Below are positions 12,597 through 54,286 of a stretch of 64,000 nucleotides of DNA, in pieces. The notes under the pieces were generated by a model that saw only the letters and a list, made by a program, of their open reading frames with translations, did no database searches and had not been told where the DNA came from. Source of the stretch: Kondoa subrosea (taxonomy: Eukaryota); assembly GCA_039545335.1 (NCBI GenBank), contig BCIN01000002.1, positions 1,191,118-1,255,117 of the forward strand. Reading direction: 5' to 3'. The position numbers and the translations under genes were made by a program. The number at the start of each line of letters is the position of its first letter. Position 1 is the stretch's first letter.

Positions 12597-14287
12597 ATGC
12601 TTTCTACTTCCATCATCACCCTAGCTTGCATCCTTGGTGCCAGCGCAGTTCCAGTAGCTGTTGGCCCAGAAAATCCAAGTCTGCTCGCCCGCAACAATGG
12701 TCCCGTTTCTGGTGGAGATTTCCCAACTGGTCCATACCAGAAGTACATGGATCCTAGTACGTGTTTTTCCCTCTTAGATCCGTCGCTTGCATTGACATTT
12801 TCTGTGCAGTGAAGAACACTTGTAAATTTCAATCATTCTAATGGTCATCTTTCAGGTTCTAATGTGGCTGCTTTTAGCTTTGGCTCCCTACCCAACCTAC
12901 CGAGCTCTCAGCAACTTCGATTACGCTTCTTTCAACTTGGCTCTTCATCAGGAGTACATTGAACTGGATTTGGTTAGTTTCGTTCTTTGGCCCCTTTCGA
13001 TCGGTAATTAACAACTTTGAACAGTTCAATTATGGTCTTGGTTAGTCTCGTTCTTTGCCCCCTTCTTTCGATCGGCTATTAACAAGTTTATAGCAACATT
13101 CACCGCTGAACAGTTTGCCGAAGCTGGAATGGGTCCTGAAGAGACCTCGCTCTTGCGATACATGGCCCAGCAAGAAACTGGTCATGCCCAACTTTTGACC
13201 AACATTCTGGGTCCTGGTGCTGCTGTTGGCTGTACCTACAACTATACCGGAGCCTTCACGGATGTCCGCAGTTACCTGGACTTCAACCAACGCTTAACAA
13301 GATGGGGTGAATCGTGAGCTTATCTGTTACTTCATTGTTTTCAGTTGTGCTTATTCTTGATATCAGCGGAGTTTGGGGATTCTTGACCAGCTTGAACTCT
13401 CGCGATTCCGCTCAATTACTATCTCAATCAATTGCGACTGAAGCCAGACAGCAGATGGTTTTTAGACAATTCACGTTTGTTCTGTTGTCCACTCAGTGTG
13501 TTCATGGCTGACATGGATATGATAGTGGTGCATTCCCAATGCCAGTCTTCTTCGAATCTGGTATTCCACAAGTGTGTTGATTTCTCTCCTCGCTTTCCAT
13601 ATTGACTTCATTTTTGCAGAACTGGGCATGGACTCTACTCGCTCCATACATACAATCTTGCCCAGCCGAGAACCCTCGTCTACAATGGTCCAACTTCCCA
13701 GCTTTGACTGTTGAAAACGTCAAGCCTTTGGCTTACGACGGATCTAAGTCAGCAGTATCTACAAATCGAACTGCCAACATCAACGTTGGTCAGTCTATTG
13801 ATCTATCTTGGGACGACCCAGGCAAGAAGGTATGTAGCGTTTCAATACTTATGGCAACTTTATCTGATTCCATTCCTTGTTCAGGTCGGACCAAACAACT
13901 CTTACATCACTCGTCGTGCTTCTGGCGATGCTAAATACGCTCTGGTTGTATCCATGCTCAATGCTACATACTTCCCTCTAGAGAACATCAAGTCAAACTC
14001 TGCTTCATTCACTTTAAGCAAGAATCCTCCTATTTACGACACTGAACTCTCTGTTGGCGAGAATGTGATTAACGGAACGGACTTTATCGCGATCACGTAA
14101 GCCAATTCCCGTCTACATTCAAAGAACAATCTGACTGTTTTCTGTAGTTCTGACAATCCTTACGTTTCCGTCTTCAACCTCACCATGGTCAACGACTATT
14201 TGGTTGCCGGACCAGCAATGTTAGTTTCACCTTCACTACACATCCATGCGTTTTGCTGACTCTTTCTTCAGCTTGCAATCTGGTTAA
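12597..14287 (+). CDS. Rds1-type ferritin-like domain protein with predicted signal peptide, about 11 exons
   Basis: Hydrophobic N-terminus [72 protein letters not shown] (paired ExxH/ExR ferritin-like helices); [14 protein letters not shown]. Confidence 0.85.
12973..13093 (+). repeat. Two adjacent paralogous introns (12973-13024 and 13041-13093) separated by a 16-nt exon
   Basis: Manual alignment gives 44 identities in 55 columns. Both have GTTAGT donors, ATTAAC branch-like motifs and YAG acceptors, and removing both keeps the ferritin-like frame. Confidence 0.9.
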
Positions 14288-34962: not shown

Positions 34963-37807
34963 TTAAGCAGGCTGCTTCTCTCCCTTTTCCAAATCCCCTT
35001 CTTCAGCAGCTGGAATCTCTACTGTTCCTACAACAGGTTGTGAACTCTTTTCATCCCCCGCTTTCACTTCTGCTCCCTTTTGAATCGTTTGTCTTTGTAA
35101 AGTATAAACTCGTAGTCCGAACATGAGACATAGTCCAACGAAGACTAGTGGCTGCAATGATACGCGATCAGGTTAGGCGTAAAGAAAGTGATGGAAGTAA
35201 CGAACTGTATCCACTATCCAAACTAATCGGACTGATCGAGCGAAAGCATGCAGGACTTGATTCCTCAATTCAACAGGCTATACACTTGCATCAGTATCTT
35301 GTTCCAATACTAAGTAAAAGAACGACTCACCTGAATCTTACTCAGATCCTGCACGTTGATCGATAAAACCGAACTACTGCTTCCTTCTTGAATAGCCAGA
35401 TCATAAGGAATAGCACGAAGACGTTTAGTTACTTCGTTCGAGTATATCGTTCCTCCTATCGTTACACCTAGAGCTCCTGACATTGTGCGCATGAGAGCGA
35501 AAGTAGAAGTAGCTGAAGCGATGCTGCAGACAGAATTATATTCAGCGACTGCAAAGATATTTGCGGAGGGAAACAAACTCTTTGACTGGCATTGCTGCTT
35601 GTAAAGCGACCAAAGGTACTTGGAATAGAGGTCTGTAGAAATCCTTATCAACCTCTGTCCGGAGTGAATCAGGAACTGAACTCACCCTATACCGAGCGCA
35701 GCGACAAGAGTAGTAAGGACCTGAGTAGCGACAGAAGAGTTGTAGTCGAGAAGGATCATCGTTCCTTGTCCAACGCAGAACACGAACCAAGATCCGATGA
35801 GGAGTTTCTGACGTAAGCGAGATCAGCTGAACATCTTTGAATGGATTTCAAAGAGAGACCTACCTTATATTCGCCAGTCTTGGTGAGCAGTACTCCTGCG
35901 AAAGTACTTGCCAGGGCACCTCCGAGCGAATAGGCTGATAAAAGAGTAAAGTGAGACAAAGAATCGAGCATATCGTCACAGATCACTCACGTAATGTACG
36001 CAGACCTGCAAGAGTAGCTGAGTTGCCTAAGATTTGATAGTACTGGACAGGCAGAAATAAGCCGGATTTCTTACTGGAGAGGTCAAAAATGCTTACGAGA
36101 GGAATGTCTGCTCAAAGAATAAGATCATGAGAGCACAAATAGTATGAAGACACTGCACTTACAGAAACTGCCGGTGAAGAACTGCAACCACCCATTAGCT
36201 CGGCCCAAACGCGCTGACGGCGAACTCACCACAAGTGAATGTAATACTACAGCTATCAAGATGATACCCGTCGTCCGAGTATGGAATAAACGAGGTGAGA
36301 TAATGGGTACTTGTTTAGTGTAAGCTCTGCAATAGTGTTAGCTGAGTTGCACGAAATAGCTTGATGTGTCTCACTCGTTGACACCAGCACCGATCAGTGA
36401 ACAAAAGCCGACGACTAGCAAAGCGATAGTAGAAGGCTTCGACCAATCCTCTTCTCCTTGCACTAGACCGATGAGTAGCATGACGACACCTCCGATGATC
36501 AAAGTGAGACCAATATAATCAAGTTCGGCTGCATGTTGTCGTGCAGTCTTGTTCTTGACTGGATTGAGGTGAAGGAAAAAGAAAAGCACAGATGCTGCTA
36601 TGGCACCTGAAGCGAAGCAGAAAAGCAGGTCTTAGCAGAAGGCAAGAAAAGACTAGCTTATACTGACCTGTTGGGAGATTTAACCAGAAAAGCCATCTGG
36701 CAGATCAGTCAGCGTCAGCGAGAGCTCAGCAGATTACAGAGCCAAAATATTCACCTCCATTGTCCAGCGTCAGCCAGAGATCCGCCAATTACAGGACCTG
36801 AAATGTACAATGAGCTCAAAAGGTTCACTGCCTGTTATGGTTACAAACCAATCGCACTATCAAGGCATCAGTGAAAGGTGAGGATCTGAGGATTAGTAAA
36901 TACCTAGCTATTCCCCAGGTGGCGCCAAGCAGACCTCCGTACTTCCCTCTCTTCTCAAGACTGACAATTTGGCTGATGATGATTTGCTGTGCCGCCAAAA
37001 GGAGTCAGAAGCCGCTTTAACGCCTTTCTTGTTCTCGAACTCACACATGAAGTCATCATCAGTCCTCCCTGTTAATCAGACCACTCAGCATGCGAAGACC
37101 AAAAGTTTTGAGAATCTGCTCACTCCGATTCCAGCTACCGCTCGACATACAATGAGCCAGATCATTGTCTGAGCTGCACCACAAAGAGCTGAACCCAACA
37201 AAAAGATGAAAATGCCGCTGCAAAAAGTCAGTCTATCATCAGATCGCGAACTTTTTGCTACACAAAGCAATACTTACGTGAATAGAGCGTATTTAGCACC
37301 GAAACTGTCGCAGACCTTGCCAGATACTGTAAGAACGAGAGCTTCAGTAATTCTTCCCTACCAAAGAAGACGAATCAACACACTAGGTGTCATGCAGGCA
37401 GCGGCCAAAAGATAAGCACTGGCAATCCACGTATAGCCTTGATATGAATGTCAACTCATGATAAATGAGGCGAACCCGTTTGACCTACCTGACCCCGGCA
37501 GCTCTGTTACAATGCGAGGGAGAGCGGTCGAGACGATCGTTTGATCCAATGCAGCCAAGAAGACAGTAAGCATCAAACCAGCAAAGACAAGGACGAGATT
37601 GTTCTTTGGTAGTTCATGTACTTCTTTGCTTGACCAACCAGCACCAGCTGGTCCTTTCTTCTTTCCCTTTACAACATCTTGTTCTACTACTGTCGCTTGA
37701 CTATCATTCGATTGACGTTCAGCTGATCGATCAGCGTTTAGTTGAGTTATAGGGAGTTCGCCTTCTTTGCCAGGGAGGCCATCCGGTGCTTTGATATTAT
37801 CGTTCAT
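34963..37807 (-). CDS. MFS drug:H+ antiporter (DHA2, 14-TM type), many short exons
   Basis: VFLAALDQTIVSTALP, WIASAYLLA, GSALCGAAQTMIWLIVCRAVAGIG, GPVIGG...WRWLFWLNLP, LDYIG, SATSTFALMRTMSGALGVTIGG. Confidence 0.92.
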
Positions 37808-44953: not shown

Positions 44954-47900
44954 ATGCCAGAGGCTGCTTTACTACCGCTTGTCGACGATGAGCGCAAGGC
45001 CGCCTTGACTACGGCGTCTGGCGAAACACCATTGTCCTCGAGCGAGATTGAACTACCTATCGAACTATCCAATGCAAGCAAGATGAACAATCTGGCTAGA
45101 TCCACTTTGCAATCGAATGCTTCAATGCATGGCCGAGATAACGGAAGCATCAGCGTCGGACATCAGAGTTTGCTACAGTAAGTTCAAACCTTGATTGTCT
45201 CATGGTCTCCTGTCTGTGTCAAACTCAAGATACAACTTGGCGTGGTGCTGCGTGTGCTATAGGCCTCATCAAGATCCTCTTTATAGGATTGCTCGTTCTG
45301 CGGAAAGCGCTTTATCACGTCTTTGCGCAACAAATGAAGTCAGCCTTCGAAAGCCCTTTGTTGTGTCTTTGCGCGGCAAATCAAGCCAGCCTTGATCCGC
45401 TTGACGATTCGCGGCCAGACATCATCTCAGCAAATTCTTTGCCCGTTTCAGATCGCGCTTGACTATATGAAGAGCTTGAAGTAATGTACAGCTTAGGCGG
45501 ACTTTGTCTGATGTCGTGTCTTCTTTTGCCATCTAGAATGATCAATGTCTTTGGAATGGACATGGGACAAGCTTATGAAGAAGTAGATTCAGATACAGAA
45601 GAGAATGATCACTTTCAGCAAGACGATTCTGATCGAGAAGATGATTGTGAGGGCGAAATTCTAAAGAAAGAAGAGAAAGCATCATCTTACTTTTCTTGAT
45701 GTGCTTTGACTAGATAACAGACAAGATCCTATGACTTCTTCTCTCAATGCTATATACAAGGCTGCATCGTCAGCTGGTTCGCCTTCAGCAAGTCGTACTT
45801 CATCCCAATTTCGGATGTCCGGACAAGAAGAGATGGAAGCTTCTTCCGCCTCTGAGAGCGATAGCGGTGATGAAGCTCTGAAGGGCTCGCATAAAGCACA
45901 GGAAGCCGTTTCGACCCGATCTTCCACGATATCATCGACGTCAATCGAACAAATCGAGAGTAGAAGAGAGGGAAGCTCCTCGTCTCTCTATACCTATGCT
46001 CAATCGCCGAAACGAAGACGGTCGCGTTCAAAGAAACGGCCACTTTCAGATGCTGTAGAGAAACGAGATATCTTAGCTCAAAAACTTCAGGAAGTCTTTT
46101 CTCTCCCTCAAAAGGAAGAGATCGTTGCTGGTTAGTCTCTCCAGCTGAAACTGTGTAGCTCATACACTGACGATGAAGCCAGAATATTCGGCTTTCTTGT
46201 TCAGATCTGTTCTGCTTCAAGGTTATTTATACCTTACTAAGCGCCACATATGCTTCTATGCCTACCTCAAAGCAAAAGAAGGTCAAGTCATTCGATCAGG
46301 CCATTTGGCAAAAAGAGCAACAAAGTCCAGACGATATTTGAGACGATGGTAAGCTCTTCTCTCTACCGTATTCGGCGAGTCTGAAACAACGTACGCAGGT
46401 TTGTGCTTAAAGATGCTGTACTGAGCTGGTACACGAGTTCTGCTGTACATTTTGGACTTGATAAGGAGACTTATCAGAGCTGAATGTAGTATTAGGACCC
46501 TTACTTTCCGGCTGGTGATGTATCGCTACACTATATCACCTCTGTAGAAGCATCTTTGAAGAACTCTAAGCACTTCAAAGTCATCACTGCCGATAGAAGA
46601 CTACATTTTGCAGCGGATTCTGTCAACTCAAGAGATGACTGGGTCAAGATATTGAAGCGAGTAGTGTTTCAATGTCAGAATCAAGGCGACAGCGTCAAGG
46701 TCAGCTTTTTCATTGCTTGCAAATGTATGCATTGCGCTGATAGTCTCGAATACAGATTGCTATCCCGTTGTCTCGTGTGGTCTCGGTTGCGAAAACTTCC
46801 TTGGAAATCATTGATGCACTTTCTATTCGTATACATGATCAAGAGAATGGCGACTCGATCGAAACTTATCCTTTCTGCTATTTCTCCAATCTTCAAGAGG
46901 TCTACGAGAAAGTCCGGGACTTAGTTGAAGAAGCTAAATTGGATCCAGACGCAGATGATAGCTCATTGCCAGCTGTCCTTGATACCACCTCTCATCCGGC
47001 GCCTCAACATAATGCAAATGAATCTAGCCTCCCTCATGGCCAGACAGACCTTCCTGCACCAGTTCGACTGTCACGCGCTTCATCGATCAGTGGAGGATAC
47101 CTGGCAGAATGGGCACGCAAGTTGCGCTTAGTCAACACGTCCGATAGTTCGACCCCGATAACGAAGTCTAGCGCTTTACCTGTTTCTACACCGCCAGAAA
47201 GTTCCATAGCTACTCTGCGTCAAAAGGATGTAGTGGATGCGCAATCTGTTCGACCTTCTTCACCTTCCCGAGCCTCGACACTCCCGACTTCTGGCCATAC
47301 TTATCCTCCCTCGACTGACACAGAGGATAGTGCAATGAATCAAGGCTTACTACACCACTGGGTTGGCAGTGGTGTACCTATGTGGATGCGAAATGCGCCG
47401 TATAAGCTAGTCTCAGCTACACCTATCTTAGGCTCTCTGGGTAAAGCTGCATTTGGTCAAGGTCCTGCGGCAGGTCGATCTAGACCAGATACAGTCACTT
47501 CCAATGACTTCGACGAAACTCCAGATACGCCTCTGCAGCACGAACTGTCGCATTACAACCTACCTGCGCCAGAGAAAGTTTTGCAGCGAGAAAACTGCTG
47601 CCTGTTCCGTGTTCTGCCTGTCATGGGTAAAATATGCATTACGGACAAGCATGTTTGCTTTCGTTCCACTCAGTTGCTCAGCAAGACCAGAGTAAGTAGA
47701 TCAATGCATACCGGAATCATCTCACTGATCAGTTATCACAGATGGTTTTGCCAATTCGAGACATCATCGCTGCTCAGAAGTCAAAGGCCTACAGCTTTGG
47801 CTATAGCGGTCTAATATTGATTGTTCGTGGTCATGAAGAGCTCTTTCTCGAATTTGGTACCAAAGAAGCCAGGAATAGCATCAGGAGCAGCATCGATCGC

Positions 47901-50301: not shown

Positions 50302-53038
50302 TCATTTCCTGTCGTACGGTAGCTTCGTTTTCGGATCGAGCACACCAAGCATGTTTGACGCCGGGCCAGCTGCCCCGTTTTGACTTGAAAAACTTTCTAG
50401 CAGGTTTTTGATCAGTCCGTATTGAGCGCTTTCGTCTGTGTCGTCACTTGGATCCTTCTTAAGCATATCGAGCAGTTCTGCGTCCATTTGCGCATCTTCA
50501 TATTCGTCCTCGTCCATATCATTACTATCATCTTGTTGTGTTGTCGATGTAGAAGGCGTTTTGTTTCGGCTCTTTGACAATTCCGCATCCATAGCATCCA
50601 TAAGCGATTCAAAATCGTTGAGTTTGCTGTTACGAGCGGGCGCTTCCGGACGAGCGGGCAGGGGAGTGGTGTGATCGATCTTGTTCGATGCAGCGGTGGA
50701 TCGAGCAGAAGAGGGTGCGTCTTCATCAATACTCATCCGGCGAGCTTTAGACTTCTTTTGGGGGAAAGTTGGTACGAAAGCTGAACTTAAAGCATGAGCG
50801 AGAGCTTGCAAAGCGAATACAGAAACTTACCTCCTCTCTGTGACCGAGACTTCAGAATGTCATCATACTGCTCCGCTGTCAGTCCCAAAGCTTCTCGGGT
50901 GAATTTCAAAAAGTCTTCCATTTCCTGATCCATGTTGACTTCTTCCTCGCCCATAACTTGAGCGCCATCTTCGCCATCCTGCATAGCAGCATCATCTTCA
51001 TTCATCAGATCTTCTTCGTCATCTTCGTCATCCGAAACGCCATCATACTTGTCCCGCTCTAACTTGGGTTCAGACATAAGAGGTGGAGGATCATCGTCTG
51101 CTTTTGCTTTCGCCGCAGAAGGCTTCTGAGTATGACTTCCCCATTCTTCTTCCGGTAAAGCGGGAACGAGCTTATCTTGTGCTGCTTTTGTTTCTGCAGC
51201 AGAGGGTTTCCTTACTTCCGCGTCACTATCATCCTCATCATCCGATAATTCACTGCAACAGACTTCTTATCAGCTACTTCCAGCTGAAAAATTCTCATCG
51301 ACTGACTCATCAAGTAATGCACCATCCATACTTCCTTCAGCATGCAAGAAGGTCTCAAACTTTTCAGCCAAACCACTTAATTTCTCAGCTTGCTTCTCAG
51401 CTTCAGCTTGTTCTTCAGCGTTCGGATCTCTGTCTTCCGTTGCACCACCACGTCGTTCTTTCAGAATTTCTTCTAAGCCTTCAGGATCCATGTTCAACCA
51501 ATCTTCTGAATCTTCCGCGGCGCCTTCTGTTGCTGCTGTGAGTAAGGCAGAGGCAGGTGAAGGTGAGGTAGAAGTGAAAGACAGGATCTGTTCTACTTGC
51601 TGTGCGAAAGATAGTTCCCGATCAGACCTAGGGAGCAAGATTTAGCTTTATGGAATAAAGGCAGGTGCAACAGACTAACGGGTCTTCTCTTGTTGCAAGG
51701 AACTGCTCTTTTGCCGCTGTAAGAAGTTCGGTATGGAGTTTCGAACCAGCTAATTCTCCTCGGAAGTAATCCAGCTTTTGCAGGTTCTCTAGAAATCGAG
51801 TATAGCTGGGATCTTTACTAAGATCGACGGATTGAGGAGCCTATGAGATACAAATAAGAATATGATTGAGCAATGGATGAGACCGTACTGTCCGATCGAC
51901 CGTCAATTTGGTCAAAGTAGACTTTGTTTCTTGGTAAAGCATCTCAAAACCGCACATCTGGTTCTGCGTTATCATTGCTCTGAGAAATAGAACTGAATTG
52001 AACTCACCAATTTCATACCAATTTCTCTTCTGCGATGTTCTACTGATCCAGGAAGATCGTTTCTCATCCATTGCGCTTTCTCAAACGGTTTGGGTGGAAA
52101 GAACTTCTGACCGATCAATTGCGCATAAAGTGTTCTTGTCATCTTTACTTGTGATAGAGACGGTGAAGACGAAGCTGGTGTAAAACGAGACATGAATTGG
52201 CAAGCCTATGCAGAGTAAGCGGACAGGCAAGAAAAGATAAACTGAGGACTGACCTTGAGCGCTATCGTGTCTCGCTCGTAGAATGTAGTCACAGCAGGGG
52301 CAACCAATTGAGGTTTTGCTCGCAGAACTGAAGCGATTTCAGGTGTCAGATACGCCAAAGTACGATGTATATGCATTTTGCCGACTTGCGAAGGATATCT
52401 AGAGGGTGGAGTCAGCTTTGTGGGATCCATGATCTGCAAACGCACTGTGTTATCCGCTGAAAGACCATAGCTTCGACATCCTCATCTGCCAAGGTTGCAT
52501 CTCCTGCTTCCGCCAAAGCTTTCAACGCATCATCTGCTGAAATATAGCCTGCTTCTGTTGTATCTTCTTCGGCAGATTGCTTCGACAAAGGTATTTGACT
52601 CTGATACTGCAAAGGAATCAAGTGTAGTCTTCCTTGTTTGATCCACAATCGATTTTCAGCATTCGTCGGAGTGACCCATTTAGGTAGAACATCGGCAGCT
52701 TCAATGAGCAAGAATTCCCCATCTGTATCATTGATGGACAACACAGCATTGGTCCATCGAAGCGAAATTTGCCGAAGCAACCAAACGATGAACCATTCGT
52801 CTTCAACGCAGTCACCAGGTCTAGTTCGGCCTTCCAGATGTGTTCCATCAGCGCTCAGATGTAAAGTGAAGCTATCACGCTGCCAGATATAGCCACTACC
52901 ACAATCAGGCGAAGTGCAGAGAGAAAGAACATAAGCTGAGATTTCCTGCAAGGCAGCAGGCAAGTCCTGTTGACCCAAGAAAAAGATTCGATAGAAAGCT
53001 TCATCTTCTGCTATCTTGCGCTGCGAAACATCTTGCAT
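50302..53038 (-). CDS. ECD: Ecdysoneless/hSGT1-family protein
   Basis: YIWQRDSF.L, GDCVEDEWFIVWLL, DTDGEFLLIEAADVLPKWV...NRLWI..G.LHLIP, LYAQL..Q.F, GMKLMCGFEM, EDSEDWL, NLLESFSSQNGAAGPASNML. Confidence 0.92.
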
Positions 53039-53310: not shown

Positions 53311-54286
53311 ATGGCTACAACATCGAAGTACCATGTAGGATCAAGTTCTTCGTGTAGACATTCGATTTCTCTCGATGCTGCGTCAGTAAAGCTTCCAAAC
53401 TGTCTGATTACGTAAGCTGACAATCAGCTTCAGCCGTTCATCGGCGCACAGTATCATCATGTCTTACTTAATTGACCTCTGTATTCTTTCTGGTCAGATT
53501 GATAGCTTGGAGTCTCAACTTACAGCTAACAAACTCCGAATTTCCACTCTACCTGAACAATGTAATGCTCTGGAAGCTAAAACTAGGGAAGAGACTCAAG
53601 CTATCAGCAGAACTCGATCCATCGTACGACGTGAAGCTCAAGTCGCCTACCAAAAGTACTCCGATGACCGAGATGCTCTAATGGCAAGACATCTCCTAGA
53701 ATGCGAAGAAAGAAGAAATCATGTCGAGCAACAATACGATGCACTGAAAAGTCGTACGGAGGCTCTGCAAACGCGCCTTTCTGACCAAGAGAGCGCAATG
53801 AGTTCAATAGATGGCTGCACATCGAGCTGTTCCCAACCTTGCGAGACCCATGGTACAGCTGGGATGATGGAGGAACTTCAGTCAATCCTGGAGCAGAACG
53901 CAGAACTTCATGGATTTTATGAAGAAAACAGATTAGTGCATGCTCGGTTTGTAGCAGAGTCGAAAGAAGTGCATGAAGAGTTCACTGCGAAAGACAATGA
54001 AAGAATGAGAAGGGCTGGGGAGTTAAATAGTGCGATCGATGCGATACGCGCAAAGGCGGCAGCAAAGACGGATGCTTTGGTCGAGGAGATGTCTGAATGG
54101 GATTTTGTCCGGATGCCCGCGATGCTGGATGCGCTGATCAGATTGGAAGCCAAGCGTCAGTCATGCTCTATTGTATGGTTGGGTGCTCGCTGACTGTACG
54201 AATTTCAGAGAAAGACAGAATCATTCTCATGACCATCTTCCGTAAAGAAATGAAACAGGCCACTTGGCAGAGCAGACTCGGCTGAG
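53311..54286 (+). CDS. Hypothetical coiled-coil protein
   Basis: 244-codon E/Q/R/L-rich heptad ORF (53459-54193) with flanking splice signals; the ends are uncertain. Confidence 0.55.

Follow-up and report, generated by a model that had tools for sequence, protein, structure and literature searches.

Similar adjacent introns in an Rds1-type gene of a basidiomycete: a probable local copy of one spliceosomal intron

Two neighboring introns in a gene for an Rds1-type ferritin-like protein, denoted here A (12973..13024) and B (13041..13093), appear to be a lineage-specific, precise local copy of one spliceosomal intron, a reading to which a probability of roughly two in three can be assigned. Under this reading, one intron would have been duplicated from its GT to its AG, with the exons excluded, and the copy placed 16 nt from its source within that gene; the insertion would have split a 16-nt piece of ancient coding sequence off as a microexon. 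Relative to the divergence from the closest relative sampled, the copy would be young, though not of very recent date, with 6 substitutions and 2 indels separating the two introns. All coordinates are positions in the window, that is, the whole stretch of DNA that was analyzed, 64 kb in length.

The host gene

The host gene (12597..14287, plus strand) encodes a predicted secreted, ferritin-like protein of the Rds1 type, with 388 amino acids after the removal of 10 GT-AG introns of 48-56 nt. In the exon model, which was built by hand and then refined against homologues, the spliced exons form an open frame from the ATG at 12597 to the stop codon at 14285-14287. Exon 4 matches the Pfam family Ferritin_2 (PF13668) with an E-value of 5e-10; the named homologues in ascomycetes carry the name 'protein rds1', and the closest match from a named organism, 63-66% identical in exon 4, comes from Cystobasidium minutum, so that the window probably derives from a Pucciniomycotina-like basidiomycete. 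P0001, a protein without a name encoded on a JGI contig of 1.35 kb, is identical to the host protein in 330 of the 387 aligned residues (85%), and a tblastn search with P0001 recovers the exons of the host gene. Against this 85% amino-acid identity, 100 of the 166 four-fold degenerate sites differ between the host gene and its nearest relative; the gene is under purifying selection. No paralogue of the host gene that could have been an intron donor is present within the 64 kb window.

The gene contains a second microexon, of only 12 nt (12810-12821), which sits between the introns 12757-12809 and 12822-12877 and completes M-K-N-T together with the first base of a Ser codon; homologues that read DPMKNTS in this place require 12810-12821. 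The two introns around this microexon are dissimilar (alignment score -2).

Structure and splicing of the twin introns

Intron A (12973..13024, plus strand; 52 nt, phase 0, GTTAGT...CAG) follows the exon end TGGATTTG (12965..12972, plus strand), which codes for ..L-D-L. Intron B (13041..13093, plus strand; 53 nt, phase 1, GTTAGT...TAG) follows the exon end TGGTCTTG (13033..13040, plus strand), the reading frame of which differs from that of its look-alike before A. Between the two introns lies the microexon (13025..13040, plus strand), with 16 nt that code for F-N-Y-G-L and the first base of an Ala codon; the predicted spliced junctions are ...GGATTTG/TTCAATTATGGTCTTG/CAACATT..., with the microexon in the middle. 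Both introns have the form GTTAGT...(C/T)AG and contain a branch-site-like TTAAC 11-13 nt from the 3' end, at 13008-13012 in A and at 13079-13083 in B, the putative branch sites. The lengths of A and B fall within the range of the other introns of the host gene (48-56 nt). The minimum free energies are -6.6 kcal/mol for A and -4.3 kcal/mol for B, with z-scores of -0.12 and -0.15 against shuffled sequences; neither intron has a stable fold beyond that of the shuffled sequences, and no Rfam match was found for either.

In 14 of the 14 full-length homologues aligned, from both basidiomycetes and ascomycetes, the motif ELDLF-x-x-GL-x-x-F is uninterrupted, and P0001 reads IELDLFNYGLATF, which is exactly the predicted splice product; among the 129 stored homologues, 103 align across both intron sites. 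Retention of A would bring in an in-frame TAA (13009-13011), retention of B would shift the frame as its length is not a multiple of three, and skipping of the 16-nt microexon would cause a frameshift, too. Given that the gene is under purifying selection, that the homologues are uninterrupted and that retention breaks the frame, A and B, by all indications, must both be spliced out. The 16-nt microexon, when set against the homologues, is evidently made of ancient, conserved coding residues and not of duplicated material. The statement of the preliminary description that the exons themselves are not repeats thus holds, with the protein colinear with its homologues and the microexon coding for ancient residues.

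Similarity of the two introns

Globally aligned, A and B agree in 44 of 55 columns; the differences amount to 6 substitutions and two indels (3 and 2 nt), and a repeat search recovers this similarity as two segment pairs, 12965-12996 with 13033-13064 (88%) and 12994-13018 with 13065-13089 (88%). The alignment score of 31 compares with scores of at most 10 for the other 44 intron pairs of the host gene (10 introns). When the interior of B is shuffled with the splice-site ends kept fixed, 0 of 5000 shuffles reach 31 (maximum 20, z = 8.5). When both strands of the 64 kb window were scanned by a pattern-based finder, 129 intron-like segments were called, with the ten host-gene introns in this set; among the 8246 pairs of such segments in the window, A-B ranks first, the runner-up scores 18, and the best score of any other segment against A or B is 12. 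Two core motifs match only A and B in the window, with 0.36 and 0.00 chance matches expected. Chance resemblance between A and B is excluded by the pair ranking (1/8246) and by the shuffles (0/5000). Both the similarity of the twin introns and the lack of anything comparable among the other introns, which had been asserted from a reading of the letters, are therefore borne out by the scores, the next pair in the window reaching 18 and the pairs within the gene no more than 10.

The stretch is not an assembly artefact: in two runs, the Logan contigs spanning 12940-13125 agree with it at every position, with word depths of 142 and 53, although both runs come from one sample that is possibly the source of this DNA, so that the check is not sample-independent. 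At 80% likeness, one contig per run was placed; A and B themselves were not flagged as fitting two places, and the placement is therefore insensitive to copies of 52 nt.

A different origin would be implied if A and B were neighboring members of a dispersed, multi-copy family of introner-like elements. Such elements account for most of the documented intron duplications in some fungi (PMC3609843), and the search for copies covered 64 kb of a genome of roughly 19 Mb. Within the 64 kb window, however, there is no further copy, and the core motifs match only A and B; furthermore, the regular length of the two introns and the lack of a stable fold are both contrary to the definition of introner-like elements, and the only fungal group for which the excerpted text of Gozashti et al. 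2022 (PMC9860276) mentions introners is Pezizomycotina. Membership of A and B in such a family appears quite improbable. The A/B core motif, with 19 fixed bases, has no match in viral contigs and a single match in a cyanobacterial MAG; in 596 Gb, some four matches would arise by chance.

Borders of the copy

The similarity of A and B stops at the 3' splice sites, with the downstream flanks matching in 3 of 8 positions, and extends 8 nt into the upstream exons, where TGGATTTG and TGGTCTTG match in 6 of 8 positions (TGGnnTTG). Within conserved codons (..L-D-L and Y-G-L-A), these upstream flanks are read in two different frames and hence are not the remnant of a duplicated exon; they are a resemblance between two insertion contexts. 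With the repeat confined to the introns, a duplicated exon is not involved: the copy extends precisely from GT to AG, has the orientation of its source, from which it is separated by 16 nt, includes no exon sequence, and lacks a target-site duplication. A match of at least 6/8 between upstream flanks occurs in 52 of the 8246 intron-like pairs (0.63%), and the microhomology, a single post-hoc test with a p-value of about 0.006, is suggestive of resemblance beyond the background. Of the donor microhomology TGGnnTTG pointed out in the preliminary description, the 6/8 match itself stands; its weight is reduced by the post-hoc character of the test and by the cDNA of the nearest relative (L001), in which the same two contexts match in only 4 of 8 positions (counted by eye).

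These borders also bear on a segmental tandem duplication of about 68 nt, comprising the intron and its exon flanks (a Rogers-type or 'segmental' same-gene duplication), which would account for the repeat period of 68-71 nt and for the run of the match 8 nt into the upstream exon. The downstream flanks, however, are unrelated (3/8), and the 8-nt upstream flanks occupy different reading frames of conserved codons. A 68-nt segmental duplication is excluded because the frame would be shifted by 16 additional nt whereas the protein is colinear with the 14 homologues, and this origin is left with a negligible probability.

Relatives and the age of the copy

Among the database proteins, there are prokaryote-style ORF calls on eukaryotic DNA, which betray intron positions. 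In three relatives, these ORFs run straight across both sites, indicating that neither intron is present there. P0005, encoded on a contig of 64.7 kb and identical in 93 of 121 residues, is uninterrupted across both sites; P0021 (from a 29 kb contig) reads through two other introns in frame, yet GLYQEWIELDLFNYGLKRFSDAEW is uninterrupted; and P0090 (51 of 64 residues identical, source unknown), which could come from a partly spliced transcript, is uninterrupted between two stretches of non-homologous read-through. Over the aligned parts, the three are 53-80% identical, the figure for P0021 including its two read-through introns. In P0039, a distant, GC-rich relative, seven non-homologous residues stand directly before FNYGL, pointing to an intron whose 3' end is at the A site or no more than 1 nt from it; F is preceded by Ser, none of whose codons ends with AG, so that this intron would not be in phase 0 and thus would not be strictly at the position of A. 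At the B site, no intron is seen in any relative examined.

A metagenome scan for the DNA of relatives yielded 18 loci. The three nearest relatives among them (L001-L003) contain no introns and, with contigs of 1.4-2 kb, probably are transcripts, and the next five loci (L004-L008) are intron-less genes with about 48% identity. The prokaryote genome collection contains no relative of the host gene. A protein search for ORF fragments reading into the introns gave no candidate with exon 2 plus the read-through of intron A as the query, and with intron B plus exon 4 as the query, only P0005 and P0032 were returned. A and B differ in 6 of 50 ungapped columns (JC 0.13), and the four-fold-site distance to L001 (JC 1.22) is about ten times as large. 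If the introns are approximately neutral, the copying, or else the last homogenisation, would have taken place long after the lineage separated from the closest relative sampled. With three relatives (P0005, P0021, and P0090) lacking both introns and with JC distances of 0.13 versus 1.22, local copying, as proposed in the preliminary description, emerges as the best explanation.

The low A-B divergence would understate the age of the introns if both were at old positions, or came from an old duplication, and were kept alike by repeated gene conversion. Ectopic repair is physically possible between repeats that are 68 nt apart on one strand, P0039 has an apparent intron ending beside the A site, and intron positions are generally crowded in this part of the gene family. 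Conversion, however, needs prior homology, which unrelated introns do not offer (the flanks match in 6/8 positions upstream and 3/8 downstream); the similarity respects the intron borders, as conversion tracts have no reason to do; and the fragments from three relatives (P0005, P0021, and P0090) lack both introns. In addition, repeats of 52 nt are short for recombination. Lacking any starting homology and given that the similarity respects the borders, conversion between unrelated old introns is unlikely, and the conversion scenario in all its forms seems improbable.

Several fragments from relatives (P0021, P0103, P0005, P0074, P0121, P0048, P0087, P0129, and P0039) are ORF fragments that lose homology near the twin introns, at points before NLAL, LYQ, QEW, IELDL, DLF, and FNYGL (within about 15 codons upstream). 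A second cluster of homology loss lies after LTRW in the relatives, to be compared with the position after WGES in the window. Judging from protein text alone, the intron positions of the Rds1 family seem to lie close together and to differ by a few codons from one lineage to another.

One of the introns read through in P0021 lies 8 codons upstream of the A site, and its in-frame peptide shares LWPLS with frame 0 of A. Kinship of this intron with A was considered, the match being the top one of 387 translations, and was dismissed as chance because A is only the fourth best of 129 by degenerate-DNA alignment.

The shared interior of A and B could, alternatively, be a functional element under selection, such as a splicing enhancer, a regulatory site or a small RNA, if it is not a product of chance. 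Microexons are often helped by flanking intron sequence, and the LWPLS common to the P0021 intron peptide and frame 0 of A, top of 387, would be compatible with such an element. The absence of an Rfam match and of a stable fold argues against it, as does the resemblance of the P0021 intron to A, which is only fourth best of 129 and not beyond chance; moreover, the 12-nt microexon of the host gene is flanked by dissimilar introns (score -2). A functional or fortuitous origin of the similarity therefore is very improbable.

Possible routes of copying

Local copying of the intron could have proceeded by an RNA route in two ways. The excised intron would have been reverse-spliced into its own transcript or else, with the TGGnnTTG look-alike as a guide, a reverse transcriptase would have changed templates while copying the pre-mRNA; in the last step, the cDNA would recombine with the gene. 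A two-jump template switch at the DNA level fits equally well, provided that selection kept only the precise copy. On balance, an RNA-mediated route appears to be slightly preferable to a DNA-level template switch. Models of intron transposition, spliceosomal retrohoming, and template switching are summarized in PMC3609843 and, within the excerpts that serve as a source here, in PMC3443670. A is weakly favored as the parent and B as the copy because the apparent intron of P0039 ends by the A site whereas none is seen at the B site in the relatives.

A more specific two-jump switch in DNA, which would make use of the resemblance between the 3' end of A (TTGAACA) and the junction at the B site (TTGCAACA), was also considered. 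It needs an extra 5-nt insertion to provide the acceptor of B and was rejected as less parsimonious than the plain alignment.

Implications and other sites in the window

The 35 adjacent intron pairs in the 64 kb window show no excess of similarity, with the next best pair after A-B scoring 7. Seven other same-strand pairs no more than 40 nt apart, called by pattern and corresponding to six distinct sites (one pair has two alternative calls, and one surrounds the 12-nt microexon), score between -6 and 4. The mean pair score rises mildly with proximity (-0.6, -1.0, -1.9, and -2.8), a trend that looks compositional. The suggestion that the twin introns point to a general mechanism generating the microexons of this genome thus finds no support in the window, where the seven other close pairs score from -6 to 4. 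It is rather doubtful that short-range self-copying of introns, into a site 13-16 nt away and within the intron's own transcript, is recurrent, still active, and a source of microexons in this genome. Were this the case, later loss of the parent copy would resemble 'intron sliding' by several codons, and recurrent self-copying would tie A and B to the crowded intron positions of the Rds1 relatives, which are close together but do not coincide.

There are few clear cases in which new spliceosomal introns can be traced to a parent, and A/B would be an unusually clean one. The pair also would illustrate one concrete origin of a microexon, namely, the insertion of an intron beside an existing intron. 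If sister strains or species differ in the presence of A or B, the locus would become a compact natural test bed for the routes of copying, in which reverse splicing could be told from a template switch of reverse transcriptase and from copying at the DNA level.

Elsewhere in the window, a 45-nt unit is repeated in tandem at 45303-45393 (two copies, 80% identical, period of 46 nt); neither strand of this probably intergenic region contains a long open frame. At 53417-53534 and 36987-37123 (both on the minus strand), there are pairs of intron-like segments 11 and 24 nt apart, respectively; these pairs are dissimilar (scores of -6/-1 and -4), and the two sites possibly hold further microexons. 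Direct repeats are found at 36710-36794 (30 nt, 83%, spacing of 55 nt) and at 51098-51210 (29 nt, 79%, spacing of 84 nt), both of which may lie within coding sequence.

Comparison with known systems

Near-identical fungal introns have been classified by Collemare, van der Burgt, and de Wit (2013) into same-gene duplications, low-copy introns, and introner-like elements (PMC3609843). The same-gene duplications, of which there are 82 members, were found in 11 of the 24 species; half of these duplications lack repeated exon flanks, and the duplicates are similar to ordinary introns in length and folding energy (PMC3609843). Like the non-segmental members of this category, A and B lie in one gene, are similar in sequence, have unduplicated flanks, and show regular length and folding; their identity is 80%, to be read with the fact that the 'near-identical' cut-off is not given in the main text of PMC3609843. 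The species in that table are ascomycetes and Cryptococcus neoformans, which has 0 same-gene duplications, whereas A and B probably belong to a Pucciniomycotina-like basidiomycete; furthermore, the spacing of A and B is a mere 16 nt, with a microexon arising between them, a point that is not discussed there (PMC3609843). The preliminary description overrated the novelty of local intron-to-intron copies in fungi, given that Collemare et al. already catalogued 82 members of same-gene duplications, half of them non-segmental (PMC3609843).

Introner-like elements (van der Burgt et al. 2012) are, like A and B, near-identical spliceosomal introns that mark recent gain. These elements, however, are multi-copy, occur in unrelated genes, have about twice the length of regular introns, and are stably folded (PMC3609843) whereas the length of A and B is that of ordinary introns, neither is structured, and the 64 kb window contains no third copy.

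A precise copy that carries its own splice signals to a new site is also the hallmark that A/B share with transposition by reverse splicing, as described for Mycosphaerella (Torriani et al. 2011) and Oikopleura (Denoeud et al. 2010) in the excerpts of PMC3443670, PMC3514964, and PMC4122922 that are the sources for these cases. According to the same excerpts, most of the Mycosphaerella and Oikopleura cases, unlike A/B, link unrelated genes. The definition of intron transposition quoted from PMC3443670 includes reverse splicing 'into its own mRNA', and the portion of that review drawn upon counts only 14 intron-gain events as unambiguous in 2012. Croll and McDonald, in the excerpted part of PMC3514964, report that no similarity was found for the gained introns of Cryptococcus or Fusarium.

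The tandem genomic duplication model (Rogers 1989), which according to the excerpted text of PMC3443670 has been demonstrated in vivo, resembles A/B in that the duplication is local, short-range, and intragenic. In that model, the intron arises from a duplicated exon whereas in A/B an existing intron would have been duplicated, and no exon. A basidiomycete case from 2008 shares with A/B the occurrence of similar introns in one gene (PMC3609843 and, in the part used, PMC3514964); as presented in these sources, it is attributed to a repetitive gene structure with exonic repeats whereas the exons around A and B are not repeats.

Altogether, in every feature tested, A and B appear to fit a non-segmental same-gene duplication, with the confinement to a single gene seen within the 64 kb window. 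The pair would thus add a basidiomycete example to a category described in ascomycetes, which leaves the overall picture unchanged; parent and copy lying side by side in a basidiomycete are of some value even though this kind of duplication has been described already.
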